From the NCBI GenBank assembly GCA_973895155.1, contig OZ316897.1, positions 7,120,470-7,184,469 of the forward strand: DNA of 64,000 bases, given 5' to 3'. Each line of letters opens with the position of its first letter. The first letter of the stretch is position 1. This document shows positions 1 to 46,530 of this stretch, piece by piece. The notes beneath the pieces are model-generated. The model saw only the letters and a list, made by a program, of their open reading frames with translations. It did not search any database and was not told the DNA's origin. This DNA comes from Marsupella aquatica. Taxonomy: Eukaryota > Plantae > Marchantiophyta. Both the position numbers and the translations under genes were made by a program.

Positions 1-2731
1 ACAAGTTCACTGACACTGGTCTCAACGAAACAATGACGAGACGACTTGGCTTTAAAATCCCCAATATCACGTTGGAGCCCAGTGGCAGCTTGAGAATCCC
101 GTTCTGATTGTCCAACATCTCGAGTCCTTCTGCTTTTCTTTTTTGTACTCGTCGCATTGACTGGGACAATCGATTTCCCAGAATTAACTGATGTAAGTGG
201 ATTTGGCAAAGCGCCAGTATTTGCTTCTGAAGCTTCTGGAGTAGCCTTCGTATCATCTGTGCCATCTGCATCTGACTTCTTTTGACCTATGGACATATTG
301 CAAAGAATGTGGGATTAGGGCCTTCAAGCAAACACTGATGAAGATTGAATCACAAGAATGGTAGCGCCGGGCGCTAGCAAACATTTGAAAAAAGATGGAA
401 AACTTACGTTTCTTTCCGGATCTCGTGGAGGCACTTGGCAATGCAGTGTCTATTTTAACTTTCCCTCGTGGCTTGCGGCTCCTATCTACATGGACAACTA
501 CTGTCTCACAGATTGTCTGTAACTCCGTAGAAGACTTATCGACGTCGCTAAGGAGACCTTGCTTCATCTCAGAAACAATGTTGGGAAGGATCTGCGACTT
601 TGCAAGTTTCAGAAACCAATCCTTCTCCACTTCATCAAAGGGTGAATCCCACTTGTCTGTGTCAAGGTACCATGGGCAGTGAATTCTTTCCCAATCAGAC
701 ATTTCCCTTGGCGGTAGTTTACCCTCGGCAGGATACATCGAGTATAAGTCACAAACAAGATCTCCCTCCTTTACAGTAATCCACTTGTGAAATGCGGCTG
801 GATACGACCAAAGAGCATCTGGGGAATGAATTTCCATCCAAATGTAGAAACGATACAAATACCTCTTGGCCCTCTTCTGATTTTTCTCGGTATATACCTC
901 TTTATCAGGGTATTTTGATGGCCACATGGTGTTGAAGAACTTTGCCTTCACAAGATCCCCATACCTTCGGAATTCACTTGAAATTACTTCAATCAGATTT
1001 TCTACCGAGTCACACCCTGACTGGGCAAGCCTATCAACCGGTAGCGTTTCAATCGCTGCGGACATTGCCGAGTGTAGCATCCCAATTGCAATTCCCTTGA
1101 CGGTATTCCATGTTTGCCATGTGTGGCACCACTGCTTCACTGGATCATCATTCACACTCGAAGGGTGGAAGAATTGTTTTCTCAACTCTGGAGTACAGTG
1201 AGCAACGAGCAATGTACACCTCAATTTCGGATCAAGCGCCGAAACTGCAGTGAAGAGTCTGGCACGGTCCATAGTGCAAACAACCGAATCTGGTTTTTTC
1301 TCTCGCTTGTTTTTCTCTGTCAAAACATACATCTCTGCACAGGTACCTAGAAAATCTTCAAACTCAGGACTAAGAAGAGGAGTGATTTTGGACATTTTTG
1401 TGGACCAATCTTTAGTAGATTCTTTCAACATGAGCGATTGCCGCTTTGTGATGTCATCAGCCGACCAAGGATTGCCTTGACTTGCTGCCAGTGCCATGTC
1501 CATCTTGAACTGGTTAGTGTAAGCTTTGATTTTGTTTTCGCATAAAATATAGACTAGAGCTTCCAGAGGCATTTTTCTTGTGTACCAAGAATGTTTTTGA
1601 GTCTTCTGTTTGATATACTCAAACTTTGCATAATTGGCGCTGTCAATGATAGACTTGTAGTGCTCTAGATCGTGAGAAAGAATCCTCCGGATTCTGTCTG
1701 CGTCAAGTATCCACGACGGTTCAACAATGGCCTGCCCTAACCTGCAATAGGTCAGGTTTTCAATTATTAGCGCCGGGCGCTAGCTTAACTTAAACACTCA
1801 ATTAGCCTATAAACATTGTATTATTTTATAAACACTCCATAAACATTGTATTTATGTAATCAACAAGTATTGCGGAAATCATTAATTACAAGCTAGGGCA
1901 AAAAACGTACTGGTTCACAGTGTGCATAGCCGCCTCAATCTGAATTTGTGAAGCTTTGTCGCCCTTGAAAATGGTGTAGAGAACTCTGGGATGATACTTG
2001 ACGTTGTCAGGATTTTCCTTAGTGACCATCATCCACGAGTAAAGTCGATGATTCTCGTCGAACACTGAGAACATTTTGTCTTTCAAGATCATAAAGGCAG
2101 GATCTGCCTCGCACTCCAGCTCAAACTTCTCGTTCTCAACAACCCAAATTGGATCCCAACTCTCCCTGATCTCTTCATTGCAGATTTGCTCCACACCATC
2201 CGAATCGGTCGGCTGTACAAAAAACCGCATTCCTATCCTGGGATTGTATCCACTACTTCGGAATGAGTCTTTCAATTTCTCAATTGACGCACTCTCCTTC
2301 TATAACGTCCGAACAACCTCCATGTGGACCAGGCGACAAAGCAGAATCCGTGGAGGTTCCTTCTCATTACCCCGGAAATCTTTCCCAAATGACATAATGT
2401 GTTTGGAGATGACTTCATCCATTCCAAGTCCTACCTCGTTGCCCTCTCCCAAAGCGTAATCGGTCATGCCATCAGTCTCCATTCTGCCCCTTCTTGGCTT
2501 CTGGCTCAGGAGTGTTGTGTTCAACGAAGGAATCGCTCCGCTCGATCTTGTAACACGACGCGAATAGAATGCCCCAGAGAATGAAGATTGTGTACTCTCG
2601 CAATGACCCTGATCTCCCTCCGGAATCGTGGTATACCCTCTTGGAGAGCTTGGAGCACTTGAAGGTTGCATTGTGGAGCCCCAAAGTTTGCGAAGGTGCT
2701 TGTACGACACAGAGCCAGTGTCTATTCTCAC
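1..2731 (-). pseudogene. Transposon accessory gene, ParB/Srx-like N-terminus, copy 1 (spliced, runs off the left edge)
   Basis: Collinear with 46835-51049. Inferred GT-AG introns 1742-1910 and 287-407 give the continuous reading HTVNQ|LGQAIVEPSW and GKKR|QKKSD. In-frame TAG at 2300-2302 where copy 2 has Q. Motif VFDENHR (DGNHR in copy 2). Start codon uncertain. Confidence 0.8.
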
Positions 2732-5700
2732 GCTCTGAACAGATTACCGTACAAAAAGAACAACCAGGAAACCTTTAAAACTTGGGCGGTTGACATCATG
2801 GGAGGTAGATTGATGCGGAAGAAAAGGATCTCACTCACCAATCATGACAAGGACAAGTGGCCGATACTGTTTAGAATGAGTATATGTAACGCCTCTTTTT
2901 AACTGGGGTACGGGAGGAGCGATGATCCATAGGCTATTGTTAAGGAAGTCAACTACAAAAAGCGTGAAACAATGAGTACGTTCATGCACTTTACCGTTAG
3001 ATATAACCGTTGGGATAATACAAGTCATTCCTTTTGATACTAGCGCCAGGCGCTAGCATTCAAAAACCAACAAAATAACATCATTAACACTGATGTTAGC
3101 CATGAAATTATGTCAGCGCCCGGCGCTAACTATATTTGATACGTGTATATTTCCTACAAACAACAATTATATAAAACAAACTCAATGTCTTTTGACATTT
3201 CTGTTATTCCAATAAAATTAATAGAGTTTTGAACCATTAATTGGAAGTGGATTAATGATAGCGCCTGGCGCTAGCATATGAAGTTTGGTTTTAGGTTTTA
3301 ATTCCGTGACATATTTATGGTAGCGCCGGGCGCTAGTAAATATCTGATCGTGTTTCTCAAACTATATTATTGATGTTACCAGTACGTAGTGACGTTGGCA
3401 AAACGACAAACGACATTTATGTTTCTACATTTTACGACTAGTACCAGTTTTGTCGTTCACAAACGATAATCTTCTGGAGTTTGTTACGAATTCACTTAAC
3501 TTTAGTCGGGTTATGTTCTCCTCTTCTCTCATTTTCTCTGTTTTCCAATTCGGGATTATTGTTCCGCAATGTCTAATTCAGTTGTGCTTCTGCGTTCTGG
3601 AACTGGAGAGATTGTACGCATTCCTTTAGGTTCTTCCGATACGTACAAACAGGTTAGTGAGAACTATCTTTGTGGAAGATTTGACATTGGCATCAATGAC
3701 ATTCTTTCCATCAAACCTGTTGATGCTTCTGGAGACGAGGCTGGTGACGCATTGTTTGATATCGACGATGGAGTCAGATTTTGGCACCTGACCGCTGGGA
3801 AGAGATACTATATCAATCTTCGAGATAATTCCGTTACGAATGAAATTCATCCGGTTCCCGTCATTCACCTTTCCGATAGTGATGAGGAGGATGTTGCCGT
3901 TCATTCGCAAAAATTGCCCAATCCGGGAACTTTGGTCAAGATGGAAGGTCAGTTTCCTTCCGAGGCACACATTGCGGGGGGTGTTGCGGAGACACACGTT
4001 GTGGGGGGTGTTGCGGGAGGTATTGTCTATCGTCGAAGCGTGATGGATGCTATTCTCAAATCAACTGGCCATAGTGAACTATCGCGATTCATCCGAACAT
4101 GTGATTTCAGGCATGAGCAGGTGAATTGCCTCCCAAGCAAATACAATGGAAACGTTGTATTTGAATTGCCCCCCGCAGAAGGTCTTCTTTCAAAAGGTTC
4201 AAGACTCCGTGACATGGATCGGCCGAAAGACTGCTACTTCTGGACATGAATATTTCCAACCTCTGCGAATGTACAACCGAAAAAGTTCTGGGAATTTGGT
4301 AAAGTGACGTGTACAGGAGCACTAGAATGTCAGAATCAAAAATGTCAGAATCAAACTTTTGACTAGGGTGAGAATTCTAGTGCCCGAACCCTCACCCCTA
4401 CTGAAGAACGCTATAACTGGATCTTTAAGGAAGGCTCTTTGTGTGTCCAACAATGACATTGGTGAATTGGAGGAAAGAGAAATTTGGGAGTCGTTAATGG
4501 TAGTTTCGACCCCTCAAAAGTTCGCATCTCTTTTTCGAAGCGTTCGGCAAGACCAAAAAGGCAAAGGTGAGTTGGAGTTTCTTGTTGAAATGCAAAAATG
4601 CATAATCTTTCCCTTTCTACAACGTTACATGCTCCCAGGTCAAGGCTGTAAAGAGGATAGGCCACATATTTTCAAAATGACTGTAAAAGGGCACGGATCT
4701 GGAGTTGATTTGTTGCGCCAAATGCAGCCTGGAGGTCCATTGGAAGGGGCATGGGTCAGTTTTGATGTGATGAGGAGGATGACAAAAGATTGGATAACTT
4801 TTAGTGCACATGTTTATGATCACAATTATCGTGCTCTTTGCACAATTTTCACATGTGAGTTGAAAGCAGAAGATTCAGAGTCTCTAGAGAAAGCCTGGAA
4901 ATTGATGATTGAGGTTTGCCATGAAAATGGGTTGGATAATGTTGTGATCCATGGACTCATGGCTGACAATGCCCAAGCTGGATGGAATGCTGTTCGGAAT
5001 GTATTTTTCGGAGGACATCCTAACCCAGAAAAGGAGCGATCGGATGCGTTTCACTTCTACCAATTGTTTCATCGTCACTCGATTGAAGGTGTATTGGAAG
5101 AAAAACGAGATGAGCATCGGAAGATGTGGGACTCTTTAAGGAACGCGTCCACATTTCTTGGAGCATACAGAATTTCAAGGGATATCGATGTATGGTGGAG
5201 ATCTGGGAATTGTGTTCCAGGGAAGCTTCGAATGCTCCAAGGTTGGTTGGCGTGGTGGGTGGTCCGATGGCGTCAATGGGGAAATTTCATTCGTTTGGTG
5301 AGTTTCAACATCCAGTAACCACTCGAACTCATACTAGCGCTTGGCGCTACCATTATTTTCAGTTAGTGTGGTCTCGTAGGTTTCGTTCATCATTATCTTG
5401 TTTTTGATACTAGCGCCCGGCGCTAGTATTAATGGACCACTTGTTTCTTAAATTTAGCAAAAATATAGTTTGAATGTTGCTAGCGCCAGGCGCTGTCATT
5501 GACTTTATGTACATGTGGCTAAGTCATATTTACTAAACTCTGCTGCTATGGTGGATGCAGAACAAAAGTGTGGAGGAAAGCGCTATGATTCCTAACTGTA
5601 CTACTTCAGAGGCGGCGCATTCCATAATGAAGGCTTGGCAAACTAAGAAAAAGGCTGGCCTATTCGAAGCATGTGAGATGGACCAAAACAGGGGTGTCTC

Positions 5701-7362
5701 ACAAGTTGCAGCATATACGGCGTATAAGAGAGGTCTTCACCGAGGAACCGGACCTACAATTTGGGAATTGGTATTCCGTTCGGCGGACCAAGCAGGTTCT
5801 TCCAAACTTTTCCAAGATGCTTCCAATATGCTTCTTTCCGGTGCGGCTGAATTCGACCTGGAAAGGAGTGGTCCACTCAATGGGGATGTTACAACAAAGT
5901 CTATGAAGAGGAAAGGTCAGGCCTCTGGGAACATCTCGGCACAAGACTCCCATCGGCATGACACTATTCTTGTAACATCACCAAATACTCGAGGTATGAA
6001 GAGGAAAAACTTAAACAAGACCGAATTCTCCCCGAATGCAGAGGGACCTGTTCACGATAACATTGGCGTTGTGGATCTGTCGGAAAGCGAAATCAAAGAA
6101 GGCTGTCATTGGAGTACTCCGCCGTGGAGGAGGGTGACAAGGTCTTCTGTAGCACCGCAAAGTGCACCTCCGAACCTCCAAAGGGTTGTCCATGACTCAT
6201 CTATGTTGGAGACTGACGTGCGACCAGGTGCTTGGCACCTGCGAAGAGTGACAAAACATGGTGCAGGGCCTCAATGTAATGGATCTCTTGGTGGTAAATC
6301 GGAACGAGATGACTATCAAAATTGTCTTAAAAAGGTTGGTTACCCGTCAACGGATGGTGTAGTTGGCATTGTTGTCAAAGGACACCGCATGTTCAGGGGA
6401 GAACCACATCCTGAGATGATTTGGTTCTGTCCCAATAATTCATGCTATAAGAGTCGGCCCCGGTGTAATGTGGTGAATCTTCCCCCGTTTCCTCATACCC
6501 TGCCCGTTTTGAAGGGCACGAATCTTTCGGAAGCTGAGGTCCAATTCCTATCTCAGCAAGGGATTGCGATCAATCCAGAGGCCGGACGTCAGGCTCCTCC
6601 ATCTCCATTTGACTTGCGAATCAATGTGAATGTTTTCCCTGAGAAAATCAATCTCCTGGAGCCAAATATCCGCCTTCGGAGTAGGAATGGTAAAAATACA
6701 GTTCCACGTTCAAATCTTTCATAAGGACACAACAAAAGAATTGAATCTGCAAACAACGAGCTGATGACACTTATTCAACAGTTTGATGTTTCAATCGAAA
6801 ACTCTTGGGGCAAACAATTTCAGATCCAGACCCAAGAGAAACTTTGTACGGCAAACACTTACTGGGTGCAGATTTGTATTTTCCCCTGCTGTTCTTGTGA
6901 GGACTTCTATCGTCGCCATTCTCATGGACGGCCTTTCATGCCTTGCAAGCATCTATATTGGGTTTATACCAACGTCCTCAAACTAGATGTCGTGGATTCA
7001 ACTTTGGCTAGTCAGCCAATTTTGACTGTAGGTGAGGTGAGGCTCATTCTAGCTAGGCAGAATTCTCTAAACTTATAGACTAGAGATTTAGTAACGTTGA
7101 ACGGCTCCAACCTCATTTGTCGCATTGCAACGTTTTATTTCTTTTCAACGATCACATTTGGTTAATATATATGGCTAGCGCCCGGCGCTAGCATAAGTTT
7201 GTCCCGTTCTGAGTGAACCTCTTTCATTTCATGGGCCGGATGGATTCTTTCATGGGCCGGATGGATTCTCATCTAAAGTCTTACACTAGTAGGTATTTTT
7301 GCAATAAGTTTATTTAAATGGGCTAGAAATCTTGGTTTGTTTTTTGTTAGCGCCTAGCGATA
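362..7362. repeat. Dispersed 15-bp palindrome TAGCGCCNGGCGCTA, MULE copy 1
   Basis: Copies start at 362, 1768, 3041, 3114, 3259, 3321, 5335, 5411, 5481, 7176 and (degenerate) 7348. All lie in inferred introns, intergenic or subterminal DNA. Confidence 0.95.
3569..7078 (+). pseudogene. MULE-type DDE transposase with C-terminal SWIM zinc finger, copy 1
   Basis: Candidate DDE residues in SFDVM, MADNAQAGWNAVRNVFF...DAFHFYQ (MULE D...CxxH-like block) and CTTSEAAH. SWIM-type CSCEDF-x-PCKH at 6890-6953. Intron 5298-5560. Stops at 4247 and 6722, and a ~300-bp deletion near 4380 relative to copy 2. Confidence 0.8.
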
Positions 7363-7637
7363 TTATAGAATACAGTTCCGATTCCGATGATATTTTTAAG
7401 ATAAGTAACATTTCGAGTGTGTTTCGTATCAGCAGCCAGTGTATGGTTGGACCCACTCGATGGTTTATGTATATTTGGTGGAGAAGTGACTGCATTTAGT
7501 TGTTGTAAGGAACCCGATCAAGTGTTACATTTCGCTAAAATGTGGGCTCAAAACTTCAAAACATTCATGGTATAGGTTCCTATTTTCCTGTTAACAGGAG
7601 TTCTGTTTTCCTGTTTCCTGTCTCGGTGGTGATGCCC

Positions 7638-7928
7638 TTATCTAATTGTAGGATTCGTTGGAAATTGCAATCTATGACTTGACTTGGGAAGTAAGTTATG
7701 TGGAAAGAGGATAGGCGGATTTGAGGCTTAGTGTGAGGAAACCGCTCATCGTAGAGTGGGATAAAGGTTGTGAGAGATATTTTAGAGGATAACGATGAGA
7801 GAAATTGATCGACAAAGGGGATCGCAAGGGTAATGTGAGGTGAGAAAAGACATATTTTGGAAAGGTTTCTTCCAAGATAGGAAAAACAAGAGCTCGGTGC
7901 TTCCCAAGAACTAAAGATTCCCCCGACA
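7638..7928 (+). repeat. 3' part of the 5' LTR of element A
   Basis: Near-identical direct repeat of 15044-15334. Confidence 0.92.
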
Positions 7929-7932
7929 TAAG

Positions 7933-7950
7933 TGGCGACCATACTGGAGA
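7933..7950 (+). promoter_or_regulatory. Primer-binding site of element A
   Basis: TGGCGACCATACTGGAGA lies 4 nt after the LTR end and begins with TGG (complement of tRNA CCA). Cognate tRNA not determined. Confidence 0.6.
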
Positions 7951-8095
7951 ACTCTTGGGGCCTATTTTTGGAAGAAAAAAGGAAGTATTGCATTACTAGA
8001 AGAGGCTAACTTGCTTTACTAGACAATTGGTCTAGAGACACCTAGGTGGTGGGCGCCTATTTATTGCGAGAGAGTAAACAAGTTGATATATAGCA

Positions 8096-13770: not shown

Positions 13771-15334
13771 TATCGTGGGGATTCCTTTTAGAAGGCTAGA
13801 ATCCATATTGTGTTATTTGAGTTTATGTGAAGAGGGTTTTACTTAAAAGCTTCATAGTAGTACTATTAGAGCATATATGTTACATTCTATATGTAGTGTG
13901 TACATTCTACAATGGTACACAGTAGTTCCACCATTTACGCATAGTAGTTTTACAAACTAGATGCATAGTAATTCCACCAAATACGCATAGTAGTTGCACC
14001 AATTACGCATAGTAGTTTCACCAACTACGCATAGTAGTTGCACCAATTATGCATAGTAGTTTCACCAACTATGCATAGTAGTTGCACCAATTATGCATAG
14101 TAGTTTCATCAACTATGCATAGTAGTTGCACCAACTACGCATAGTAGTTTCACCAACTACGCATAGTAGTTTCACCAACTACGCATAGTAGTTTCACCAA
14201 TTACGCGTAATAATTCCACCAACTACGCACAGTAGTTCCACCAACTATGAATAGTACTAGCACACTTATAGATGCTTGATGCTTGCCACTTGGCTTCCAT
14301 CCAAGGGTCAAGGCATCAATCCATGCCCTCTTGGAAAACACAAAGGGGCACTATAAATAAAGTGAAGAGGAACACACTCTCCTCATTTGCATTGTTTGAT
14401 CTATCGTGTTGGACTTGCAACACTGTAAGGAACTCTTCCCCTCTTGTGCACATGTCTTGTTTATTATTTACCTCCATGCTTGGGTACTAACTTGATTGTT
14501 AGCCTTAGAACTATTTTATGTTTTATGTTTATTAGTCTTGAGATCAATTTAGTGTGTTTGTAATAAATAATATGATAAATGGAGTACCTAGAGTTTATCC
14601 CCCACCTGCTGTGCCATTCGTCAATCCTTTCTTAATTAGAATTCATTGTCTTAGCAAGCATACCATGAGAATGCATCTTCTTTATCATTTTGGGTTTGAG
14701 TTAATGGAAACAGTTATGAATAGCGATGCACCATTTGTATACCCGATCGTTGTTTATGGAAATGAATGGAATGTAATTATTTTTATTTTATATTAGATGG
14801 ATTTTAATAGACAATCCATAAATGTACCGGAGTTAGATTTGAATAGGCTTCCTAATAATGTGTCTGATTTTCCTTCATCTATTGACATTAGAGTGGTATG
14901 CCGTAAGAAGGTTGATTGTAGAGATGTTTTAGTTAGAAAGTATGGAGATGAAAGATACAATGTTATGCTTAGGATGCTAGAGCCTGTGATTATATCATCT
15001 ATGGTAAATCTTAAGATCATAGTCTTTGTTTTCTATAATTGACTTATCTAATTGTAGGATTCGTTGGAAATTGCAATCTATGACTTGACTTGGGAAGTAA
15101 GTTATGTGGAAAGAGAATAGGCCGATTCGAGGCTTAGTGTGAGGAAGCCGCTCATCGTAGAGTGGGACAAAGGCTGTGAGAGATATTTTAGAGGATAACG
15201 GTGAGAGAAATTGATCGACAAAGGGGATCGCAAGGGTAATGTGAGGTGAGAAAAGGCATATTTTGGAAAGGTTTCTTCCAAGATAGGAAAAACAAGAGCT
15301 CGGTGCTTCCCAAGAACTAAAGATTTCCCCGACA
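13771..15334 (+). repeat. 3' LTR of element A (~1.56 kb)
   Basis: Follows AGTGGGGGTGATA. The start TATCGTGGGGATTCCTTTTAG is a degenerate inverted match to the end CTAAAGATTTCCCCGACA. Confidence 0.78.
13918..14258 (+). repeat. 22-bp tandem minisatellite (GCATAGTAGTT[T/G]CACCAA[C/T]TA[C/T]), about 15 units, inside the LTR
   Basis: Direct 22-bp periodicity, e.g. units at 14051, 14073, 14095, 14161, 14183. Confidence 0.95.
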
Positions 15335-21180: not shown

Positions 21181-24100
21181 TGTGATGCCTAGACAGGAAT
21201 CACTCGGCCGGTTAAGTGGGTAAAGCAGGAAGGCACCCTAGGAACACCTTAGTATAGTGACAAAACAAGGAAAATATAAACAATTAGGGGCAACCATGGA
21301 ACCCGGGCCGAGGCTGGAGGTAAGACTAAGGGTGAAAACCCGATTAGGGTTAGGGCGCGTTAAGCGTCGGCGGCTAGGAAGGATCAACGGGAAGAAGGAC
21401 CGGCAGAGGAGAGGGGTAAGGAGCGCTTGCAGGAGATGGTGGCTCATTTGCGAGCACGAACTAGGCAGACGACTACGGGAGGCCAACTACTGTCAGCTGC
21501 TTAGGCAAGCACTCGGGGAGAGAGTAGATACCGACGATCGACCTAAGGAGGGTATGAGCAACGTCAATCAAGCGGCACATTTCTGGGGATGCCTGTTCGA
21601 ACGGGCAACTGAGTACATCAAGACTTACGAGGACAAGGAGTCAGAAAGGGCAGCTCGAGAACGGCAAGAGCTCGCTCGATTGTGGGAGCTGCAGAAGACG
21701 GCTTTCTTAGGAGGCGAACTCATCAAGGACGAGTTCCTGTGGACGCCTACTTCCAATCAACTCGACGATCTTCTGTTTTGCAAAGACAGCGTCGTCGGCA
21801 TCCGAGAGGCCATCAAGAACTGCAACGACATACATTGGGAATTAAAGGGTAGCACGGAAAGGTGGACCCAGGCAACGGTGCTAGGAGAAACCTCCACGGC
21901 AGCAGAGATGAAGAGGAAGGGAGCCGTCAACGATGAAGCCACCCCGGCAAAAAGAACGAGGTCGGCGGCACCAAAGAAGCCAGCCGAGCAGCAGAGCAGG
22001 AGGCAGGGAGAAGCCGAAGAGGAGGAGGTCGATCCCATCAAGGCCATTCCAACCAGGGATGACACCTGGAAGGGCTGGGCGGCAACCCTACCGGTGGAGG
22101 TGCAACTACATTTTGCACGGGAGGAGGATGCATGCTTTACGGCCATGCAGACCAAGAAGTACCAAGGCTTCATGGCCGGATCCGGCTTGGAGGCCTTTGT
22201 AAGATTACCATGGCTGAAGCCGGAGGTACCGGAGTCAGACCTATTAGAATTCGTGGGGTCATGGGAACCCGAGACCAATTGCACGAGGATATATGGGAAG
22301 GATTTCTATCTTACTCCCAAGGTAATTGCCGAAGTGTTTGGCCTGCCGATAGGCAATAAGACCAAAGTTGATACCAGGAAGACCTTGCCTGACAAGGAGT
22401 TCCGGTCGTTCCCCGGGCCATCAACGAAGAATGGCTTCTTCCGGAACACCTGCACCAACCCGCACATAGGAGAGATGATCGACTTCTTGCGGGTGACCAT
22501 GCATTGTAACTTGCCGAGGGTAGAGATCGGCAAGGCACAGGTCTATCTGGCAGAAAGGCCAGACCCAAGCCGGGACTACAACGGGTACCTCCTCAACCAA
22601 TTGAAGAAGATCTTAAAGGAGGAGCAGCAGGTAATCGGCATGGGGAGCGTGTCGCGGCTTGGCTATCACATGCCGCTGTTGTGCCGGTATGCCAGAAGTC
22701 AGACTTTTGCCCCGGTACTTCCCCTGTAGGTAAGGGCACCCGAGGAAGCTCCAACGCCGAGGCCGTTGGCTGAGAAGCCTCAACCACCTATTAGTCCTAT
22801 GATCGAGCAGGTGTTTAGGCCCAGGAAGGAAGACTTGCCGATGCAGCAACCAGGCATGCAGAGTCTGCTGAAACTACTGGAGAAAGAAAAGAAATTGGCA
22901 TCGGCAACAACAACGGCAACGGCAACAATGCAGGACACTACTACAGAGGTAGGCCAACACCGGCTCACAAGAGAAAACCCCTTTGCTGGAGACAAGGAGA
23001 GAATCAGGCCGGAATCCAAGCCATGTGTTCGAATGTACGTGGGAACCTCAAGCTCCGAATCTGAGGCAGAATTGCCTGAAGCTCCTACCGAGGAAGAGGA
23101 GAGGGAGAAGCCGGACGTCCAAGAGGTAGAGGAGGCAGTGGAGGACTGCAGCCATGATAATTCCGGCTATGGGTCGGACCATCACGTTCCAGGAGTAAGG
23201 ACCTGTGGCCGGTTTGTCCCCACACTTCCAAGGGTAGTGCGAGGGGACCCCAACCAGCAGAGTAGCCCTGAGTCTCCCCCACCAGATGTTGCTCCCCCGA
23301 GCTTCGACGGCATAAAACAGACGGTGCAGGAATTTCAGGAGCGAATCAAGCAGGAGGAAGAGGCCGCCCTGGCTAAGGAAAAGGATTTACCAGGGGGAGA
23401 TTGGCCGGAGGACATCAGGCGGCTAGCCGAAAAAGGAAGCAAACCTCTAGCCACGATTGAAGAGATCCGCATGACGGCTTGGGAGCAGAGGCCACGATGG
23501 GCGATGCCGATCACTTCTACTTACTCCACCTACGCTAAGAATAGAGCCATGGAGTATGGTGAGATGTGTGGGGAACTTGCGCTCGGCATCTTTGGAGAGG
23601 AGTTGGAGGTAGGACCCTTTTTCCATAGGGAGCAGTTGGAGAAGCACCAATTAGAAGAAGCGGTGGCTTTAGAGAGAAGCAAGAAGGACGAGGTCATTCG
23701 GCGGCTTAGGAGGATGGAAGCCGAGATTGAAGATCTAAGGGCGGCCAAGAAAGCCCAAGATGAACTGCGGATTAAACGACATGAGTTGAACATCATGCAG
23801 GGGCAGTTGGACGCCGCGCAGGCTGATAATCAGAATATCAAGGATAAACTGACTCAGACGCAGGAAGAGTTGGCCGACACGATCAAAGAGAGGGAGAAGT
23901 GGAAGCAAGAGCTGAAGAATACAGAGGAGGCCCACATAACAGCCAACAGCCGGGCCATGGCGGAGACCCAAAGAAAGGAATGGGCGTTGAAAGGGGAGCT
24001 CGAGAAAATCCACGGAGCCCTTGAGCAGAAGGAGGTCGAGTTAGGGAAATCCTATCAAGGGATTATGGCGCTGCAGCAGGAGCTTGCGTCCCTGACGGCC

Positions 24101-25826
24101 AGCTTCAAGGCCGACCTAAGGGAGAAGGACGAGATGCTCGAACAGACTTACGCCAAGATGAACCAGATGGAGTCTGTCATCATTGCAGAGCTCGACAAGG
24201 AGCTAAGAGCAACCCAGGAGGAGAGGGCTACCTTGAAGAAGGAATTGGAGGAAGCCCACAGGGAGCAGGAGGAGGCCAAAAACGAGCTGGAGGGGGCACG
24301 TAAGGACCTGGATGAAACCCAAGAGGAGTTGGAGGAAATCACGAGGAAGATGGAGAACCTACAACCAAACAGAGCGGCTGAAGAAACAAGCCGCAGTATT
24401 TAAATGCTTAGCTGCAGCAGGTCCATCTCCCGTTGGGACAAACCAGTTACCAGGGGTGGTAATTGCCGAAGGACAAGCCGCGCCACCTACACCAGTGCCG
24501 GAAGTAAGTGGGAAGGGGAAGGGACCAGCTGCCGAGCCACCAACGAAGAAGAAGCGGACACCTTCAGGGTCAAGGAGTAATACGACTTCACAGGCCGTGG
24601 TGATCAAGGAGGTAGACCCAGCACCGACCCCAGACAGGGTCACGGCTAAGGATCCAACTACCCTAGGGGAAGGGGAGGCCGAAGCCGAGGGAGTGGCTGA
24701 AGCCGAAGCCGTTGGAGTGGCTGAGGCCGAAGCCGTGGGTATTGCCGAGGCCGGTGTCGAGGCTGAAGCCGAAGGTGGACCCAGTCAGGCCGATGGAGAG
24801 TTGACTCGGTCAAGGGCAGGTAATCTGTCAGTAGGCGGGCCAACGGCAGTGGCTGAGGAGGAAGTGTTGGGGGCGTCCATTGAGGATCCACCACCGGTGT
24901 CGTGACGGTGCAAGGGCGCCGTTCCTTTTAGGGAGGGCGGACGTGGAGGGAGGAGGCGTGAGTGGGCAGGGCGGGCGCGGATCTCCACGTTTAGGATTAG
25001 GATCAGAACCAGGAGCGGCCCTGACACTTAGCTTAGTGGGATTGCGGTCCCACTGGTAGGAGCAACACTTGTGCTCCTGCCTTGCTGTACATAGGTAGAT
25101 TCGGGCAAGTAGATTACTGTCAGGTAGATTAGGCTTACGATGCAAAGAATGGCGGATCCACTACCAGGATAAGTACCTGGGCAGCGGGGAGCTCAGGGCC
25201 TCTTCTTTAGCAAGTTTTTAGTTTGCACCAGCCGGGCTGGGATCAAGTAGTACAAGAAGCTCTCGGTTAGTCATACAGTGACCCTTGTGTATATTCATGT
25301 TTCCTCATGCCTAAGAGCTGAATAGAGTTGGCCTCACGGCTTAGTTCGCAGAACTTGTGTATGAGATGTACTGTTTGTATGGCAAGTGCATGGTATGACT
25401 CAGTCAGAATGAGTCATTTTGCTATTTGTGTGTCGCATTAACTTGTGTGAAGAGTGCCCACATCAACAGAAGGAAGGAAAGTAAGCAGGGGAGTGAGAGT
25501 TGGATGTGTCGAGCTGAGAGAGGTCTTAGCGGCTTAACCAAGCCTATTGGGGATCATTCCGGCGGCGGAATCCAAACATACCTAACAAGACGGAGGGGAA
25601 GACAGGGGAAGACAGGGGAAGGCCTATATTAGGCCGGCTACGTATCTCATGACCCGATGAAGGATCTGTCCAGTATATGTGTGTAAAATGTTAATAGTAG
25701 TAGTAGAAGGTTAGCAGCGTCCCATGCCGCTAAGCCGCGGAAACGGCCTCGCCAAGCACGAAACCTGCGGGAATCGGCTTGAGCTGGGGGGTTTCTTGGG
25801 TTTAGGGAGCCATGGGACGCACCACA
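21181..25826 (+). repeat. 5' LTR of element D (4646 bp)
   Basis: Direct repeat of 32051-36710. Differs by roughly twenty substitutions (counted by eye) and a 14-bp deletion near 24362. Confidence 0.97.
21257..24905 (+). pseudogene. LTR-encoded ORF, disrupted copy
   Basis: Same as 32127-35789 but with CAG>TAG at 22727 and a 14-bp frameshifting deletion near 24362. Confidence 0.9.
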
Positions 25827-32050: not shown

Positions 32051-35000
32051 TGTGATGCCTAGACAGGAATCACTCGGCCGGTTAAGTGGGTAAAGCAGGA
32101 AGGCACCCTAGGAACACCTTAGTATAGTGACAAAACAAGGAAAATATAAACAATTAGGGGCAACCATGGAACCCGGGCCGAGGCCGAAGGTAAGACTAAG
32201 GATGAAAACCCGATTAGGGTTAGGGCGCGTTAAGCGTCGGCGGCTAGGAAGGATCAACGGGAAGAAGGACCGGCAGAGGAGAGGGGTAAGGAGCGCTTGC
32301 AGGAGATGGTGGCTCATTTGCGAGCACGAACTAGGCAGACGACTACGGGAGGCCAACTACTGTCAGCTGCTTAGGCAAGCACTCGGGGAGAGAGTAGATA
32401 CCGACGATCGACCTAAGGAGGGTATGAGCAACGTCAATCAAGCGGCACATTTCTGGGGATGCCTGTTCGAACGGGCAACTGAGTACATCAAGACTTACGA
32501 GGACGAGGAGTCAGAAAGGGCAGCTCGAGAACGGCAGGAGCTCGCTCGATTGTGGGAGCTGCAGAAGACGGCTTTCTTAGGAGGCGAACTCATCAAGGAC
32601 GAGTTCCTGTGGACGCCTACTTCCAATCAACTCGACGATCTTCTGTTTTGCAAAGACAGCGTCGTCGGCATCCGAGAGGCCATCAAGAACTGCAACGACA
32701 TACATTGGGAATTAAAGGGTAGCACGGAAAGGTGGACCCAGGCAACGGTGCTAGGAGAAACCTCCACGGCAGCAGAGATGAAGAGGAAGGGAGCCGTCAA
32801 CGATGAAGCCACCCCGGCAAAAAGAACGAGGTTGGCGGCACCAAAGAAGCCAGCCGAGCAGCAGAGCAGGAGGCAGGGAGAAGCCGAAGAGGAGGAGGTC
32901 GATCCCATCAAGGCCATTCCAACCAGGGATGACACCTGGAAGGGCTGGGCGGCAACCCTACCGGTGGAGGTGCAACTACATTTTGCACGGGAGGAGGATG
33001 CATGCTTTACGGCCATGCAGACCAAGAAGTACCAAGGCTTCATGGCCGGATCCGGCTTGGAGGCCTTTGTAAGATTACCATGGCTGAAGCCGGAGGTACC
33101 GGAGTCAGACCTATTAGAATTCGTGGGGTCATGGGAACCCGAGACCAATTGCACGAGGATATATGGGAAGGATTTCTATCTTACTCCCAAGGTAATTGCC
33201 GAAGTGTTTGGCCTGCCGATAGGCAATAAGACCAAAGTTGATACCAGGAAGACCTTGCCTGACAAGGAGTTCCGGTCGTTCCCCGGGCCATCAACGAAGA
33301 ATGGCTTCTTCCGGAACACCTGCACCAACCCGCACATAGGAGAGATGATCGACTTCTTGCGGGTGACCATGCATTGTAACTTGCCGAGGGTAGAGATCGG
33401 CAAGGCACAGGTCTATCTGGCAGAAAGGCCAGACCCAAGCCGGGACTACAACGGGTACCTCCTCAACCAATTGAAGAAGATCTTAAAGGAGGAGCAGCAG
33501 GTAATCGGCATGGGGAGCGTGTCGCGGCTTGGCTATCACATGCCGCTGTTGTGCCGGTATGCCAGAAGTCAGACTTTTGCCCCGGTACTTCCCCTGCAGG
33601 TAAGGGCACCTGAGGAAGCTCCAACGCCGAGGCCGTTGGCTGAGAAGCCTCAACCACCTATTAGTCCTATGATCGAGCAGGTGTTTAGGCCCAGGAAGGA
33701 AGACTTGCCGATGCAGCAACCAGGCATGCAGAGTCTGCTGAAACTACTGGAGAAAGAAAAGAAATCGGCATCGGCAACAACAACGGCAACGGCAACAATG
33801 CAGGACACTACTACAGAGGTAGGCCAACACCGGCTCACAAGAGAAAACCCCTTTGCTAGAGACAAGGAGAGAATCAGGCCGGAATCCAAGCCAGGTGTTC
33901 GAATGTACGTGGGAACCTCAAGCTCCGAATCTGAGGCAGAATTGCCTGAAGCTCCTACCGACGAAGAGGAGAGGGAGAAGCCGGACGTCCAAGAGGTAGA
34001 GGAGGCAGTGGAGGACTGCAGCCATGATAATTCCGGCTATGGGTCGGACCATCACGTTCCAGGAGTAAGGACCTGTGGCCGGTTTGTCCCCACACTTCCA
34101 AGGGTAGTGCGAGGGGACCCCAACCAGCAGAGTAGCCCTGAGTCTCCCCCACCAGATGTTGCTCCCCCGAGCTTCGACGGCATAAAACAGACGGTGCAGG
34201 AATTTCAGGAGCGAATCAAGCAGGAGGAAGAGGCCGCCCTGGCTAAGGAAAAGGATTTACCAGGGGGAGATTGGCCGGAGGACATCAGGCGGCTAGCCGA
34301 AAAAGGAAGCAAACCTCTAGCCACGATTGAAGAGATCCGCATGACGGCTTGGGAGCAGAGGCCACGATGGGCGATGCCGATCACTTCTACTTACTCCACC
34401 TACGCTAAGAATAGAGCCATGGAGTATGGTGAGATGTGTGGGGAACTTGCGCTCGGCATCTTTGGAGAGGAGTTGGAGGTAGGACCCTTTTTCCATAGGG
34501 AGCAGTTGGAGAAGCACCAATTAGAAGAAGCGGTGGCTTTAGAGAGAAGCAAGAAGGACGAGGTCATTCGGCGGCTTAGGAGGATGGAAGCCGAGATTGA
34601 AGATCTAAGGGCGGCCAAGAAAGCCCAAGATGAACTGCGGATTAAACGACATGAGCTGAACATCATGCAGGGGCAGTTGGACGCCGCGCAGGCTGATAAT
34701 CAGAATATCAAGGATAAACTGACTCAGACGCAGGAAGAGTTGGCCGACACAATCAAAGAGAGGGAGAAGTGGAAGCAAGAGCTGAAGAATACAGAGGAGG
34801 CCCACATAACAGCCAACAGTCGGGCCATGGCGGAGACCCAAAGAAAGGAATGGGCGTTGAAAGGGGAGCTCGAGAAAATCCGCGGAGCCCTTGAGCAGAA
34901 GGAGGTCGAGTTAGGGAAATCCTATCAAGGGATTATGGCGCTGCAGCAGGAGCTTGCGTCCCTGACGGCCAGCTTCAAGGCTGACCTAAGGGAGAAGGAC

Positions 35001-36710
35001 GAGATGCTCGAACAGACTTACGCCAAGATGAACCAGATGGAGTCTGTCATCATTGCAGAGCTCGACAAGGAGCTAAGAGCAACCCAGGAGGAGAGGGCTA
35101 CCTTGAAGAAGGAATTGGAGGAAGCCCACAGGGAGCAGGAGGAGGCCAAAAACGAGCTGGAGGGGGCACGTAAGGACCTGGATGAAACCCAAGAGGAGTT
35201 GGAGGAAATCACGAGGAAGATGGAGAACCTACAGCGGCGGGCCGACAACCAAACAGAGCGGTTGAAGAAACAAGCCGCAGTATTTAAATGCTTAGCTGCA
35301 GCAGGTCCATCTCCCGTTGGGACAAACCAGTTACCAGGGGTGGTAATTGCCGAAGGACAAGCCGCGCCACCTGCACCAGTGCCGGAAGTAAGTGGGAAGG
35401 GGAAGGGACCAGCTGCCGAGCCACCAACGAAGAAGAAGCGGACACCTTCAGGGTCAAGGAGTAATACGACTTCACAGGCCGTGGTGATCAAGGAGGTAGA
35501 CCCAGCACCGACCCCAGACAGGGTCACGGCTAAGGATCCAACTACCCTAGGGGAAGGGGAGGCCGAAGCCGAGGGAGTGGCTGAAGCCGAAGCCGTTGGA
35601 GTGGCTGAGGCCGAAGCCGTGGGTATTGCCGAGGCCGGTGTCGAGGCTGAAGCCGAAGGTGGACCCAGTCAGGCCGATGGAGAGTTGACTCGGTCAAGGG
35701 CAGGTAATCTGTCAGTAGGCGGGCCAACGGCAGTGGCTGAGGAGGAAGTGTTGGGGGCGTCCATTGAGGATCCACCACCGGTGTCGTGACGGTGCAAGGG
35801 CGCCGTTCCTTTTAGGGAGGGCGGACGTGGAGGGAGGAGGCGTGAGTGGGCAGGGCGGGCGCGGATCTCCACGTTTAGGATTAGGATCAGAACCAGGAGC
35901 GGCCCTGACACTTAGCTTAGTGGGATTGCGGTCCCACTGGTAGGAGCAACACTTGTGCTCCTGCCTTGCTGTACATAGGTAGATTCGGGCAAGTAGATTA
36001 CTGTCAGGTAGATTAGGCTTACGATGCAAAGAATGGCGGATCCACTACCAGGATAAGTACCTGGGCAGCGGGGAGCTCAGGGCCTCTTCTTTAGCAAGTT
36101 TTTAGTTTGCACCAGCCGGGCTGGGATCAAGTAGTACAAGAAGCTCTCGGTTAGTCATACAGTGACCCTTGTGTATATTCATGTTTCCTCATGCCTAAGA
36201 GCTGAATAGAGTTGGCCTCACGGCTTAGTTCGCAGAACTTGTGTATGAGATGTACTATTTGTATGGCAAGTGCATGGTATGACTCAGTCAGAATGAGTCA
36301 TTTTGCTATTTGTGTGTCGCATTAACTTGTGTGAAGAGTGCCCACATCAACAGAAGGAAGGAAAGTAAGCAGGGGAGTGAGAGTTGGATGTGTCGAGCTG
36401 AGAGAGGTCTTAGCGGCTTAACCAAGCCTATTGGGGATCATTCCGGCGGCGGAATCCAAACATACCTAACAAGACGGAGGGGAAGACAGGGGAAGACAGG
36501 GGAAGGCCTATATTAGGCCGGCTACGTATCTCATGACCCGATGAAGGATCTGTCCAGTATATGTGTGTAAAATGTTAATAGTAGTAGTAGAAGGTTAGCA
36601 GCGTCCCATGCCGCTAAGCCGCGGAAACGGCCTCGCCAAGCACGAAACCTGCGGGAATCGGCTTGAGCTGGGGGGTTTCTTGGGTTTAGGGAGCCATGGG
36701 ACGCACCACA
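32051..36710 (+). repeat. 3' LTR of element D (4660 bp)
   Basis: Direct repeat of 21181-25826. Confidence 0.97.
32127..35789 (+). CDS. LTR-encoded protein (up to 1220 aa): plant-transposon accessory-type domain plus long coiled coil
   Basis: Uninterrupted ORF wholly inside the LTR. LLEFVGSW...IYGKDFYLTPKVIAEVFGLP resembles PMD/Transposase_32-type plant TE domains. E/K/L-rich heptad region. Likely start is MSNVNQ at 32424, which is conserved in the solo LTR. Confidence 0.8.
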   Translation: MTKQGKYKQLGATMEPGPRPKVRLRMKTRLGLGRVKRRRLGRINGKKDRQRRGVRSACRRWWLICEHELGRRLREANYCQLLRQALGERVDTDDRPKEGMSNVNQAAHFWGCLFERATEYIKTYEDEESERAARERQELARLWELQKTAFLGGELIKDEFLWTPTSNQLDDLLFCKDSVVGIREAIKNCNDIHWELKGSTERWTQATVLGETSTAAEMKRKGAVNDEATPAKRTRLAAPKKPAEQQSRRQGEAEEEEVDPIKAIPTRDDTWKGWAATLPVEVQLHFAREEDACFTAMQTKKYQGFMAGSGLEAFVRLPWLKPEVPESDLLEFVGSWEPETNCTRIYGKDFYLTPKVIAEVFGLPIGNKTKVDTRKTLPDKEFRSFPGPSTKNGFFRNTCTNPHIGEMIDFLRVTMHCNLPRVEIGKAQVYLAERPDPSRDYNGYLLNQLKKILKEEQQVIGMGSVSRLGYHMPLLCRYARSQTFAPVLPLQVRAPEEAPTPRPLAEKPQPPISPMIEQVFRPRKEDLPMQQPGMQSLLKLLEKEKKSASATTTATATMQDTTTEVGQHRLTRENPFARDKERIRPESKPGVRMYVGTSSSESEAELPEAPTDEEEREKPDVQEVEEAVEDCSHDNSGYGSDHHVPGVRTCGRFVPTLPRVVRGDPNQQSSPESPPPDVAPPSFDGIKQTVQEFQERIKQEEEAALAKEKDLPGGDWPEDIRRLAEKGSKPLATIEEIRMTAWEQRPRWAMPITSTYSTYAKNRAMEYGEMCGELALGIFGEELEVGPFFHREQLEKHQLEEAVALERSKKDEVIRRLRRMEAEIEDLRAAKKAQDELRIKRHELNIMQGQLDAAQADNQNIKDKLTQTQEELADTIKEREKWKQELKNTEEAHITANSRAMAETQRKEWALKGELEKIRGALEQKEVELGKSYQGIMALQQELASLTASFKADLREKDEMLEQTYAKMNQMESVIIAELDKELRATQEERATLKKELEEAHREQEEAKNELEGARKDLDETQEELEEITRKMENLQRRADNQTERLKKQAAVFKCLAAAGPSPVGTNQLPGVVIAEGQAAPPAPVPEVSGKGKGPAAEPPTKKKRTPSGSRSNTTSQAVVIKEVDPAPTPDRVTAKDPTTLGEGEAEAEGVAEAEAVGVAEAEAVGIAEAGVEAEAEGGPSQADGELTRSRAGNLSVGGPTAVAEEEVLGASIEDPPPVS

Positions 36711-36929
36711 GCAGCGTAAGCCTAATCTACCTAACTATAATCTACCTATGTACAGCGAGGTAGGAGCACAAGTGCTGCTCTTACCAGTAGATCCGCAATC
36801 CCACTAATAAGTGTCAGGGCCGCCTCCTGGTCCTGATCCTAATTCTAAACTTGGAGATCTGAGCCCACCCTGCCCACTCACGCCTCCTCCCTCCACGTCC
36901 GCCCTCCTTAAAAGGAGCAGCCCTCCACC

Positions 36930-39900
36930 ACCATCATGGTAGCGGTGGCTGATCCTCAATGGACGCCCCCAATGCTTCTTCCGTAGCCACTGCCATAGGT
37001 CCATCCTCTGACAGATTACCTGCCCCGGACCAAGTCAACTCTCCATCGGCCTGACTGGGTCCACCCTCGGCTTCGGTCTCAACATCGACCACGACCTCTA
37101 ATATGGCTACGGCCTCCCCGGCATGCTCTAGTGGAGAATCCGATACCCCGGCTTCATCACTGATTGTTCCGGCCTCGGCCTTGCCATCCCCGCCTTCTAG
37201 GGTGGATCTACCGTGATCCTGCCTGAGGTTGGTGCCGGTTGTACCTCCTCTGTCACGACGGCTTGAGAAGCCGCATTACTACCTAACCCTGAAGGTTTCC
37301 GCTTCTTCTTCTTCCCTATTTTGGCAGCTGGTCCCTTCCCCTTGCCACTTATCTCCGGCACCGGTGCGAGTGTTGCGGCTTGTCCTTTGGCCAGTACTAC
37401 TCCTGGCAACTTGGTTGCCCCAATTGGACTTGATGAAGCTAAGCACTTAAATACTGCGGCTTGTTTCTTTAGCCGCTCCGTTTGGTTGTCGGCTCGCCGC
37501 TGTAAGTTCTCCATCTTCCTCGTGCTTTCCTCCAACTCCTCCTGCACTTTGTCTAGGTCCTTGCGCGCCTCCTCCAGCTCCTTCTGGGCTTCCTCCAATT
37601 CCTTCTTTAAGGTAGCCCTCTCCTCCTGGGTTGCTCTTAGCTCCTTGTCAAGCTCCGCTACGACCTCAGACTCCATTTTCTTCATCTTGGCATAAGTCTG
37701 ATCAAGCTGGTCGTCTTTCTCATGCAGGTCGGCCTTGAAGCTGGCCGTCAGGGATGCAAGCTCTTGCCGCAGCACAATAATCCCTTGATAGGATTTCCCT
37801 AACTCGGCCTCCTTCTACTCAAGGGCTCCGCGGATATCCTTGAGTTCCCCCTTCAATGCCCTTTCCCTTCTCTGAGTCTCCGCCATGGCCCGATTGTTGG
37901 CTGCTATGTGGGCCTCCTGTGCGTCCCTCAGCTCCCGCTTCCACTTCTCCCTTTTCTTGACCGCATCAGCCAACTCCCCCTGGGTCCGAGTCAGTTTATC
38001 CTTGATAATCTGATTATCAGACTGAGCGATATCCAATTGCCCCTGCATGATGTTTAGCTCATGCCGTTTAATTTGCAGCTCATCTTGGGCTTTCTTGGCC
38101 GCCTTCAGGTCTTCCACCTCGGCTTCCCTTGCCCTAAGTTGACGGATGACCTTGTCTTTCTTTCTTCTCTCCAAAGCCACCGCTTCTTCTAATTGGCATT
38201 TTTCCAACGTCTCCCTCTGGGAAAAAGGTCCCTGCTCCAACTCCTCCCCAAAGATGTTGAGCGCAAGTTCCCCACACATCTCCCCGTACTCCATGGCTCT
38301 TTCTTTAGCATAGGTGGAGTGAGTAGAAGCCATCGGCATCAACCACCGTGGCCTAGCTTTGTTCCCAAGCCGCCTTGCGGATTTCTTCTATCGTGGCTGG
38401 AGGGCTGCTTTGTTTTTCTGCAAGCCGCCTGATGTCCTCTGGCCATTCTCCCCCTGGTAAATCTTTCTCCCTAGCCAAGGCTGCCCTCTCTTCCTCCCTG
38501 AGTCGCTCCTGAAACTCTTGTGCCATCTATTTTACGCCGTCAAAGCTTGGGGGAGTGACATCTGGCAGGGGGGACTCGAGGCTGTTCTGCTGGGTGGGGT
38601 CCACTCAAACTACTCTTGGAAGCATGGGGATGAAACGGCCACAGGTCCTTATTCCTGGGACATGATGGTCCGACCCGTAGCCAGAGTCATCATTGCCGTA
38701 GTCCTCCACCGCCTCCTCCACTGCTTGGACTACCGGCTCCCCCCGCTGCTCCCCTGGTCTTGCCATGAACACGGCCTCTTGCCGATCATAGCTAGCAGGT
38801 CCTAGTTCCTCCTCTAGCTTCCAGGCTGTCTTCTCCCTCTGTTTCCCCTGAACAGGAGCCTTAGGGTGCCTTCCCTTGGCTACAGGACTCGAGGCTCCTT
38901 CATACTTTTGAACCCCCGACTTGTGTTCCGGCCTCCTTCTTTCCTTGGCTCCGGTAAAGGGGTTTTCCTTCATGAGTTGGCTTAGGCCAACCTCTGAAGG
39001 AGTGTCCTGTACTTGTGTCGTTCTCTTTTCCTTCTCCAGCAATTTCAGCAGATTCTGCATGCCTGGTCGTTCCATCAACAAGTCCTCCATCCTCGGCCTA
39101 AACACCTGCTCGATTGTAGGACTGTCGGGCTGGTTTGGTTTCTCTATTGCTGGCCTCTGTTCCGGAACCTTCTCTGGTGCCCTTGCTTGTAGTGGAAGTA
39201 CCGGGGCAAAGATCTGATTTGGGGCATACCGGCACAACAGCGGTATGTGATAGCCAAGCCGAGACACACTTCCCATGCCGATTGCCTGCTGTTCCTCCTT
39301 CAAGATCTTCTTTAGTTGGGTGAGGAGGTACCCGTTGTAGTCTCGGCTTGGGTCTGGCCTTTCCGCTAGGTAGACCTGTGCCTTGCTGATCTCTGGCCTC
39401 GGCAAGTTGCAGTGCATGGTTACCCGCAAGAAATTGATGATCTCTTCTATGTGCGGGTTGGTGCAGGTGTTCCGAAAGAAGCCATTCTTTGTTGATGGCC
39501 CTGGGAACGATCGGAACTCCTTATCTGGCAAGGTCTTCTGGGTATCTACTTTGGTCTTATTGCCCATCGACAAGCCAAACACTTTGACAATCACCCGGGG
39601 AGTGAGATAGAAATCCTTCCCATACACCCTTGTGGAATTGGTCTCGGGTTCCCATGATTCCACAAATTCTAATAAGTCTGAATCCGACACCTTCGGCTTC
39701 AGCCATGGTAATTTCACTAAAGCTTCCAAGCCGGATCCGGCCATGAAGCCTTGGTACTTTTGAGTCTGCATAGCCGTAAAGCATGCATCCTCTTCACGTG
39801 CAAAGTGTAATTGCACTTCCTTGGGGAGGATCGCCGCCCAGCCTTTCCAGGTGTCATCTCTTGTTGGAACAAGATTGATGGGGTCAACCTCCTCTTCTTT

Positions 39901-40404
39901 GGCTTCATCCTGCGCCCTGGTCCCTTGCTCGGCTGGCTTCCTTGGTGCCGCCGACCTCGTTCTCTTCGCAGGGGTGGTCACTTTGTTGGCGTTCCCTTTC
40001 CTCTTAATAGCTGCTGCCATGGATGTTTCTCCTAGCACGGTTGCCTTTGTCCACCCCTCCGTGCTACCCTTCAACTCCCAGTGTATGTTGTTGCAGCGGT
40101 TGATGGCTTCCCGGATGCCAACTATTCTGTTCTCACAAAACAGAAGATTGTCGAGTTCGTCGCCAGTAGGTATCCACAAGAATTCAGCCGTGATGAGTTC
40201 TCCTCCTAAGAAGGTAGACTTCTGCAGCTCCCACAGTCGAGCGAGCTCCTGCCATTCTTGAGCGGCTCTCTCCGATTCTTCGTCCTCATAGGTCCCAATG
40301 TACTCAGTTGCCCGTTCTAACAGGCATCCCCAAAAAAGAGCAACCTGATTGACGTTGCTCATACCCTTCCTTGAATTGATAGTTGGTATCTGCTCCCTCC
40401 CCAA
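36930..40404 (-). pseudogene. Diverged, disrupted copy of the LTR-encoded ORF in the solo LTR
   Basis: ORF pieces 38605-40404, 37815-38342 and 37197-37775 align with the 1220-aa protein. Confidence 0.88.
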
Positions 40405-46409: not shown

Positions 46410-46530
46410 GAAGAGAAGAGGTGAGTCCGGGCAGACCAGAAACGAAACGAAGGGAAGAGGTGAGTTTGGGTAGTCCACAAACAAAACGAAGGGAAGAGGT
46501 GAGTCGGCCACTCACAGAAATGAAAGGGAG
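46410..46530. repeat. 39-bp tandem repeat, about 3 units (GAAGGGAAGAGGTGAGT...)
   Basis: Units at 46410, 46449 and 46488. Confidence 0.85.

Follow-up and report, generated by a model that had tools for sequence, protein, structure and literature searches.

What does a short palindromic word do in the introns and spacers of a plant transposon, and which protein would read it? This question is raised by a stretch of 64,000 nucleotides from the liverwort Marsupella aquatica (contig OZ316897.1, positions 7,120,470 to 7,184,469 of the forward strand; called the window below), which contains three copies, A, B and C, of one Mutator-like transposon. The word, TAGCGCCNGGCGCTA, has 32 matches at ≤2 mismatches in the 64-kb window against 0.05 expected, a number that none of 100 shuffles reached, and all 32 are confined to the three elements. 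At ≤3 mismatches 35 of 36 matches lie within A, B and C, and the remaining one, with 3 mismatches, is the single match in the other 42.3 kb. The palindromes are confirmed as real, selected and family-specific, and they are tentatively read here as docking sites of a protein encoded by an accessory gene of the element. The three copies and their termini are:

1 to 7637: element A, a Mutator-like copy whose left part lies beyond the window; it holds 11 palindromes and has its right end at 7637
45050 to 56692: element B, complete at 11.6 kb and flanked by a 9-bp target duplication; at ≤3 mismatches it has 19 sites
60727 to 63147: element C, a gene-less 2.4-kb derivative with ends as in B and an 8-bp target duplication
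45050 to 45101 (plus strand): left terminus of B; its ACAGGAA repeats point inward and form a motif class distinct from the palindrome
56669 to 56692, 7591 to 7637, 60727 to 60763 and 63124 to 63147: mirrored ACAGGAA termini

Elements A and B each carry two divergent genes, both broken, and the family is multi-copy in public sequencing runs. B is inserted in a Gypsy-type integrase region, and C gave no protein match among a comparison set of 204 proteins. The ends are short, imperfect inverted repeats, and 13 of the 14 in-element matches to ACAGGAA lie within about 430 bp of an end, so that the transposase has candidate sites other than the palindromes. Because the termini carry this separate repeat, the layout suggests two proteins with two classes of site.

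The base composition of the palindrome was determined from 34 sites. The centre base is T in 11, C in 10, A in 7 and G in 6 of them, which bears out the proposal of the first-pass annotation, an earlier inspection of the letters alone, that the centre is free. Its companion proposal of fixed arms holds for the second arm base, which is invariant in 68/68 half-sites, and fails for the outer T/A, which is altered in 7/68. As had also been stated, the variants are mostly C>T or G>A (19 of 30 arm changes), and all 15 of the coordinates given earlier carry or bound the motif. Perfect copies account for 7 of the 11 sites in A and 7 of the 19 in B. The site reaches beyond its 15 bp into a symmetric preference for W-T-R-N on the outer side of both arms, and the 15-bp core together with this preference is near the ParB-type palindrome size of about 16 bp. 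At site 362 most family contigs are, among the variants listed, unlike the window sequence. Genes and palindromes are arranged as follows:

1 to 2740 (minus strand): accessory gene of A; exons at about 2740-1893 (ParB/Srx-like), 1741-408 (helical middle domain) and 286 onward; broken
3570 to 7078 (plus strand): broken transposase gene of A with a DDE-like core and a SWIM-like end
46838 to 51055 (minus strand): accessory gene of B; predicted ParB/Srx-fold exon 50340-51055 (DGNHR) and middle domain; broken
48715-48003 and 47853-47228 (minus strand): N4/N6-methylase-like exons of the B accessory gene, followed by a C-terminal exon
52294 to 56046 (plus strand): transposase gene of B; intron 54320-54551; broken
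362 to 376: palindrome in A accessory intron 2 (about 287-407)
1768 to 1782: palindrome in A accessory intron 1 (about 1742-1892), a gap across which a Riccia protein aligns
3041 to 3335: four palindromes between the divergent genes of A (3041, 3114, 3259, 3321)
5335 to 5495: three palindromes in the A transposase intron 5298-5560 (5335, 5411, 5481)
7176 to 7362: two palindromes 3' of the A transposase gene (7176, 7348)
45243, 45628, 45641, 45863 and 46779: palindromes of the B left arm
47893 and 47955 (intron 3), 48762 (intron 2) and 50255 (intron 1): palindromes of the B accessory gene
51445 to 52053: six palindromes between the divergent genes of B
54336 and 54398: palindromes of the B transposase intron
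56119 and 56290: palindromes in the 3' region of B
61498, 61804, 61918, 62034 and 63037: the five palindromes of C, all imperfect

Intron positions are inferred, with GT-AG ends and homologous proteins as the guide. Riccia proteins align across accessory intron 1. At the transposase intron, 8 of the 10 listed homologue ends with WGxxxR[LV] run into V-S or V-R and break off there, one annotated Calypogeia model has its splice at the position of the inferred intron, and one of the 10 is uninformative. With these gene models, none of the 29 sites of A and B (≤2 mismatches) falls in an inferred exon, which has a probability of about 5e-15 under uniform placement and agrees with what had been noticed earlier. 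Introns, spacers and 3' regions are all occupied, and the sites are thus spaced along the whole element and not just at its ends, as proposed; along the genes the distance between sites is about 1.4-2 kb or less. The statement that every intron holds a site has one probable exception, a weakly supported B intron of roughly 100-150 bp near 47070-47227, which is site-free.

Some smaller features accompany these sites. A palindrome-bearing unit of about 115 bp has been multiplied in C (61794-62111, sites 61804, 61918 and 62034). The left arm of B includes, in inverted orientation, part of the 3' end of a related transposase (45238-45547, minus strand; 57% over 30 amino acids) and a second pair of terminal-type repeats (45462-45482). 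At 45900-46375 (minus strand) B has a possible small third gene, which is disrupted by stops and lies between palindromes 46779 and 45863; the frame had no match among the 204 comparison proteins.

The word is kept between A and B, of whose four-fold sites 78/209 (37%) are identical. To describe variation within the family, contigs of four runs were mapped on 3025-3350, where 35 places are variable; 33 of them are among the 266 flank positions, 1 among the 56 arm positions and 1 among the 4 centre positions (Fisher P=0.015, arm versus flank). Both observations uphold the claim that the motif is under selection. A one-to-one orthology of conserved sites is not established. For 9 putatively orthologous pairs, comprising the intron and 3' pairs of the first-pass annotation plus the promoter-end and 7348/56290 pairings, flank identity is 0.26-0.39 against 0.29±0.05 for 189 background pairs, and two of the nine (1768/50255 and 5335/54336) reach the 98th percentile of the background. 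Site numbers also differ between A and B, with three versus two in the transposase intron and four versus six between the genes, and some family contigs connect one site to another at altered spacing. The word is conserved while positions and numbers turn over.

The transposase gene allowed the palindromes to be followed beyond this family. Two stops of the A transposase are absent from family contigs, and 23 relatives were found among 539 candidates, the named ones being from the liverwort Calypogeia fissa with 42-55% identity. D122 and D189 are invariant and DxxH is near-invariant in 19 aligned transposases; we take these to be MULE signatures. The Pfam MULE family was matched by 0 of the 19 members, and no Pfam family recognises the transposase. 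Direct reading finds CxC...CxH at its end, where Pfam SWIM gave no match. The designation Mutator-like would therefore follow from these motifs and from the length of the target duplications, 9 bp in B and 8 bp in C, which is inside the range of 8-11 bp for such elements (PMC6446971). No transposase relatives were detected by locus search in viral contigs, and prokaryote genomes gave one confirmed stretch and no loci.

A metagenome scan yielded two transposase loci, L001 and L002, from 112 pattern matches. Each contains the same transposase intron as A and B, and TAGCGCCNGGCGCTA at ≤2 mismatches is absent from both. The transposase cores of A and B are 77% identical and both copies have the word with its N1 spacer in the intron. 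In L001, which is 65-69% identical over the aligned part, the intron holds three copies of TAGCGCCGGCGCTA, i.e. the same half-sites without a spacer, and in L002 (46-47% identical) it holds a 121-bp tandem array in which ATCTCGGC-N7-GCCGAGAT is present six times. None of these words falls outside the intron, and neither count was reached in any of 200 shuffles. The expectation that subfamilies carry different motifs is thereby borne out with respect to transposase divergence. Because the same intron holds different palindromes in two relatives, the sites appear to be family-specific and to turn over between families, and the motif appears to co-vary with lineage, as judged from two loci whose contigs end short of the accessory gene. 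A coding tandem repeat of 63-66 bp is also present in L002 (1329-1523), in the second transposase exon.

The accessory protein has 105 relatives at E≤0.001, and 6 of the 10 clusters looked up are Riccia sorocarpa models. Its arginine motif is DGNHR in 52 of 60 motif matches among the homologues and reads DENHR in the A copy. The AlphaFold model of B exon 1 has a predicted local distance difference test (pLDDT) score of 90 and predicts a ParB/Srx fold. Foldseek places ParB, KorB, Noc and Srx at the head of its list (best E-value 0.045, probability up to 0.99), and in VIA the top 9 of 15 rows have the ParB/Srx fold (best Z 6.4, root-mean-square deviation (rmsd) 3.4, 97 aligned); these fold scores are modest yet appear set apart from unrelated rows. 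In the Atlas, B exon 1 was linked to DUF3723 and ParB_N clusters. Pfam recognised nothing in the ParB and middle frames, PDB sequence searches returned nothing useful, and the ParB exon alone had no long-protein match. Relatives of the accessory gene were absent from viral and metagenome contigs in the locus searches, tblastn against phages gave no match, and no ParA-like match was present among 23 frames scanned. The middle domain is helical. The 906-amino-acid model of a Riccia homologue (pLDDT 68) has no clear fold match in PDB or BFVD, and in the Atlas the middle domain has no named family and low recognition. Spo0J 118-199 was aligned with residues 184-363 of the Riccia model (Z 4.2, rmsd 2.7, 82 aligned) at rank 48, tied with unrelated helical matches.

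A further observation concerns the ParB-fold exon (50342-50878, minus strand), which in the Atlas most resembles DUF3723 clusters of fungi (score 0.95, with 176-182 features in common). This hints that DUF3723 proteins may carry a ParB/Srx domain. DUF3723 proteins are cargo of Starship elements. A text search for both DUF3723 and ParB terms found no literature.

The explanation that we prefer, while holding it as tentative, is that the palindromes are selected, family-specific sites that would serve as docking sites of the accessory protein and would shield the element from silencing. Its direct basis is formed by the sites themselves, the exon exclusion, the constraint, the change between families and the separate terminal motif. 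In the proposed mechanism, the accessory protein rather than the transposase would bind the palindromes, acting as a dimer, and the dimer may spread from the sites by analogy with ParB and VirB. The first-pass annotation expected a homodimer site and named no protein for it; the accessory protein is a candidate by its predicted fold. The methylase-like domain without PPY would be a non-catalytic DNA- or S-adenosylmethionine (SAM)-binding module. The output would be anti-silencing, so that the element is kept expressed, as VANC does from non-coding motifs, and docking would let the element protein recognise and shield its own copies. Introns and spacers would hold the sites because they are the only places free for them, which would also account for their spacing along the genes.

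Several points weigh against this explanation. In L001 and L002, with contigs that carry no accessory gene, the change of motif tracks the transposase equally well. For the ParB/Srx fold, Foldseek E-values are 0.045 or worse and Z is under 8, and an HTH (helix-turn-helix) of the ParB kind in the middle domain is not established by the models. The ParB fold serves non-clamp enzymes too (10.1101/2025.10.10.680097), and a Mutator transposase can activate its own copies itself (10.64898/2026.08.24.746577). The comparison of arm and flank variation may be biased because contig depth is heaped at the motifs, where it can mask variants, and contigs from other sites dilute them. CpG retention is not distinctive either. 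Observed/expected CpG ratios are 0.74 in A, 0.75 in B and 0.47 in C, compared with 0.54-0.70 in younger long terminal repeat (LTR) neighbours and 0.22-0.43 in old Gypsy flanks, and no clear gradient toward the palindromes is seen in A and B. Since A and B hardly exceed the younger LTR neighbours, the ratio is a weak observation that does not count as support for anti-silencing.

Other explanations share part of this evidence. The accessory protein might bind the palindromes and use an active methylase to write N4-methylcytosine or N6-methyladenine on the element, or might serve transposition. Similarity to N6_N4_Mtase, seen in B (E 0.007) and, with a best E of 1e-5, in 6 of the 7 long homologues scanned from Riccia, the retention of the domain across families with a conserved D-x-P-[TS]-G motif, and the self-modification proposed for algal proteins (PMC12477816) speak for such an enzyme. 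We nevertheless consider it unlikely, as all Pfam scores are below the curated cut-off, including the match of a DxxxDxxxGxG-type SAM-binding motif to PF01555 positions 165-218, C-terminal to motif IV. Beta-class N4C/N6A methyltransferases (PF01555) have the catalytic motif (D/N/S)PP(Y/F/W), but PPY occurs in 0 of 21 motif-IV-like matches, which instead read D-[LMIV]-P-[TS]-G or similar, and even the Asp is lost in B, whereas rotifer N4CMT requires SPPY (PMC8885841). It is quite unlikely that the palindromes are bound by the transposase, for which they would be an extended form of subterminal-type sites used in synapsis or self-activation. They do not cluster at the ends, a repeat of another kind is found at the termini, all five C sites are imperfect though the C ends are kept, and the peaks reported for the AtMu1 transposase, which binds and activates its own copies, sit at terminal inverted repeats (10.64898/2026.08.24.746577). 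Still, the motif changes with transposase divergence and five sites are kept in the gene-less C, and because the relatives' contigs lack the accessory gene the transposase is a possible binder. A host transcription factor that uses the sites as enhancers for germ-line expression would fit their intronic and promoter placement and their constraint. We regard it as improbable, given that 42 kb of other elements in the window lack the word and that a change of half-site and spacer between families is hard to reconcile with a single host factor, with the proviso that L001 and L002 possibly come from other hosts.

Two further readings do without a binding protein. RNA hairpins or DNA cruciforms are suggested by copies with arms of 9-11 bp. 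Symmetric flanks, however, pair in 74 cases against 73.3 expected, none of the 28 altered arm pairs has a compensating change, G-U-tolerant changes show no excess (4 versus 6), some sites lie beyond the transcribed regions, and positions 1-8000 have no match in Rfam. This reading is largely refuted by the lack of covariation, compensation and G-U preference and is very improbable. Because there is no flank covariation and no compensated arm pair, a protein-binding site would fit the sequences better than a hairpin. Neutral footprints or micro-insertions into TA sites would explain why the word starts and ends with TA. They are disfavoured to the point of being scarcely credible, as a 3-5-bp duplication outside the 15-mer is found at 0 of 34 sites, the word is confined to one family, and the CpG-rich arms are intact at near-saturated divergence.

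Returning to docking of the accessory protein, a bolder version, which we find rather doubtful, would have a nucleotide-gated sliding clamp load at family-private palindromes, spread over the element in plant chromatin and block silencing, with families evading one another as well as the host through joint changes of the protein and of the half-site or spacer. If true, the families would offer a natural set of orthogonal protein-site pairs and, in addition to VANC, another way of sequence-specific transposon anti-silencing that evolved independently. The protein might then be the first DNA-sliding ParB clamp in eukaryotic chromatin and possibly a targeted epigenome tool. The element provides a sharp candidate site and natural variants of it (spacer 1, spacer 0, different half-site), and binding, specificity and nucleotide dependence are therefore directly testable.

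Other elements are present in the window as well. A 4.66-kb direct repeat (21181-25826 and 32051-36710, 99.3% identity) has long open reading frames and flanks gag/pol-like frames, and probably belongs to an LTR element whose LTRs are very long. An inverted copy with 80% identity follows at 36711-40736. A 292-bp repeat (7637-7928 and 15043-15334, 97% identity) brackets gag/pol-like frames and starts at the right end of A, and A therefore adjoins an LTR or lies within one. A frame at 59977-60726 (minus strand), which we take to resemble an EnSpm/CACTA transposase tail, is interrupted by element C.

No description of these palindromes or of this land-plant element was found in the literature searched, whose supplements may describe algal repeats. 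The idea is partly in print, as ParB-methylase cargo of algal transposons, ParB genes next to arrays of inverted repeats in red algae and the VANC sites of Arabidopsis are known. The closest likeness by domain make-up is Sola1-1_Ec32 of Ectocarpus, in which an accessory gene of about 1100 amino acids on the strand opposite the transposase encodes ParB-like and N4C/N6A methyltransferase domains, and the protein is proposed to bind and modify its own element (PMC12477816). As here, ParB-like and N4/N6-methylase-like domains are joined in one gene opposite the transposase. Unlike here, the element belongs to a brown alga and to the Sola superfamily, the main text of that report does not contain "palindrom", and the methylase motif is altered in the Marsupella element. 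The Bostrychia Plavaka cargo protein PAG3 is also ParB-like, and element-borne inverted repeats were proposed as its sites (10.1101/2025.02.11.637652). PAG3 is fused to a 2-oxoglutarate oxygenase and its repeats are tandem arrays adjoining the gene, whereas the sites described here are mostly single, dispersed through introns and spacers of the whole element, and family-variable. Self-binding was proposed in both algae and tested in neither according to the texts covered (PMC12477816, 10.1101/2025.02.11.637652), and those texts define no site for it. Phage ParB-N6N4 fusions are known as well (10.1101/2025.10.10.680097), and an account of other ParB-linked eukaryotic methylases does not, in the portion consulted, include this one (PMC4738411).

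ParB binds 16-bp palindromes, and Shigella VirB relieves silencing at a distance by loading and sliding (PMC10770331). The predicted ParB/Srx domain and the palindromes near 16 bp resemble these ParB-parS and VirB-virS systems, from which the Marsupella element differs by its eukaryotic chromatin, its extra methylase-like domain and the lack of a ParA among the frames scanned; an HTH, a dimerisation domain and cytidine triphosphate use would be putative in its accessory protein. A further close parallel is VANDAL/VANC of Arabidopsis (PMC5735166, PMC10398659), which is likewise Mutator-like with an accessory protein, short family-specific motifs in the non-coding DNA of introns, spacers and terminal parts, and degenerate termini, and VANC binds its motifs in introns and spacers (PMC5735166). 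The accessory protein differs from VANC in its predicted ParB/methylase make-up, of which Pfam scans of the accessory frames gave the methylase family alone. VANC motifs are asymmetric 8-9-mers in tandem repeats, whereas those of the present families are palindromes of 14-23 bp that are mostly dispersed and tandem in L002 and C.

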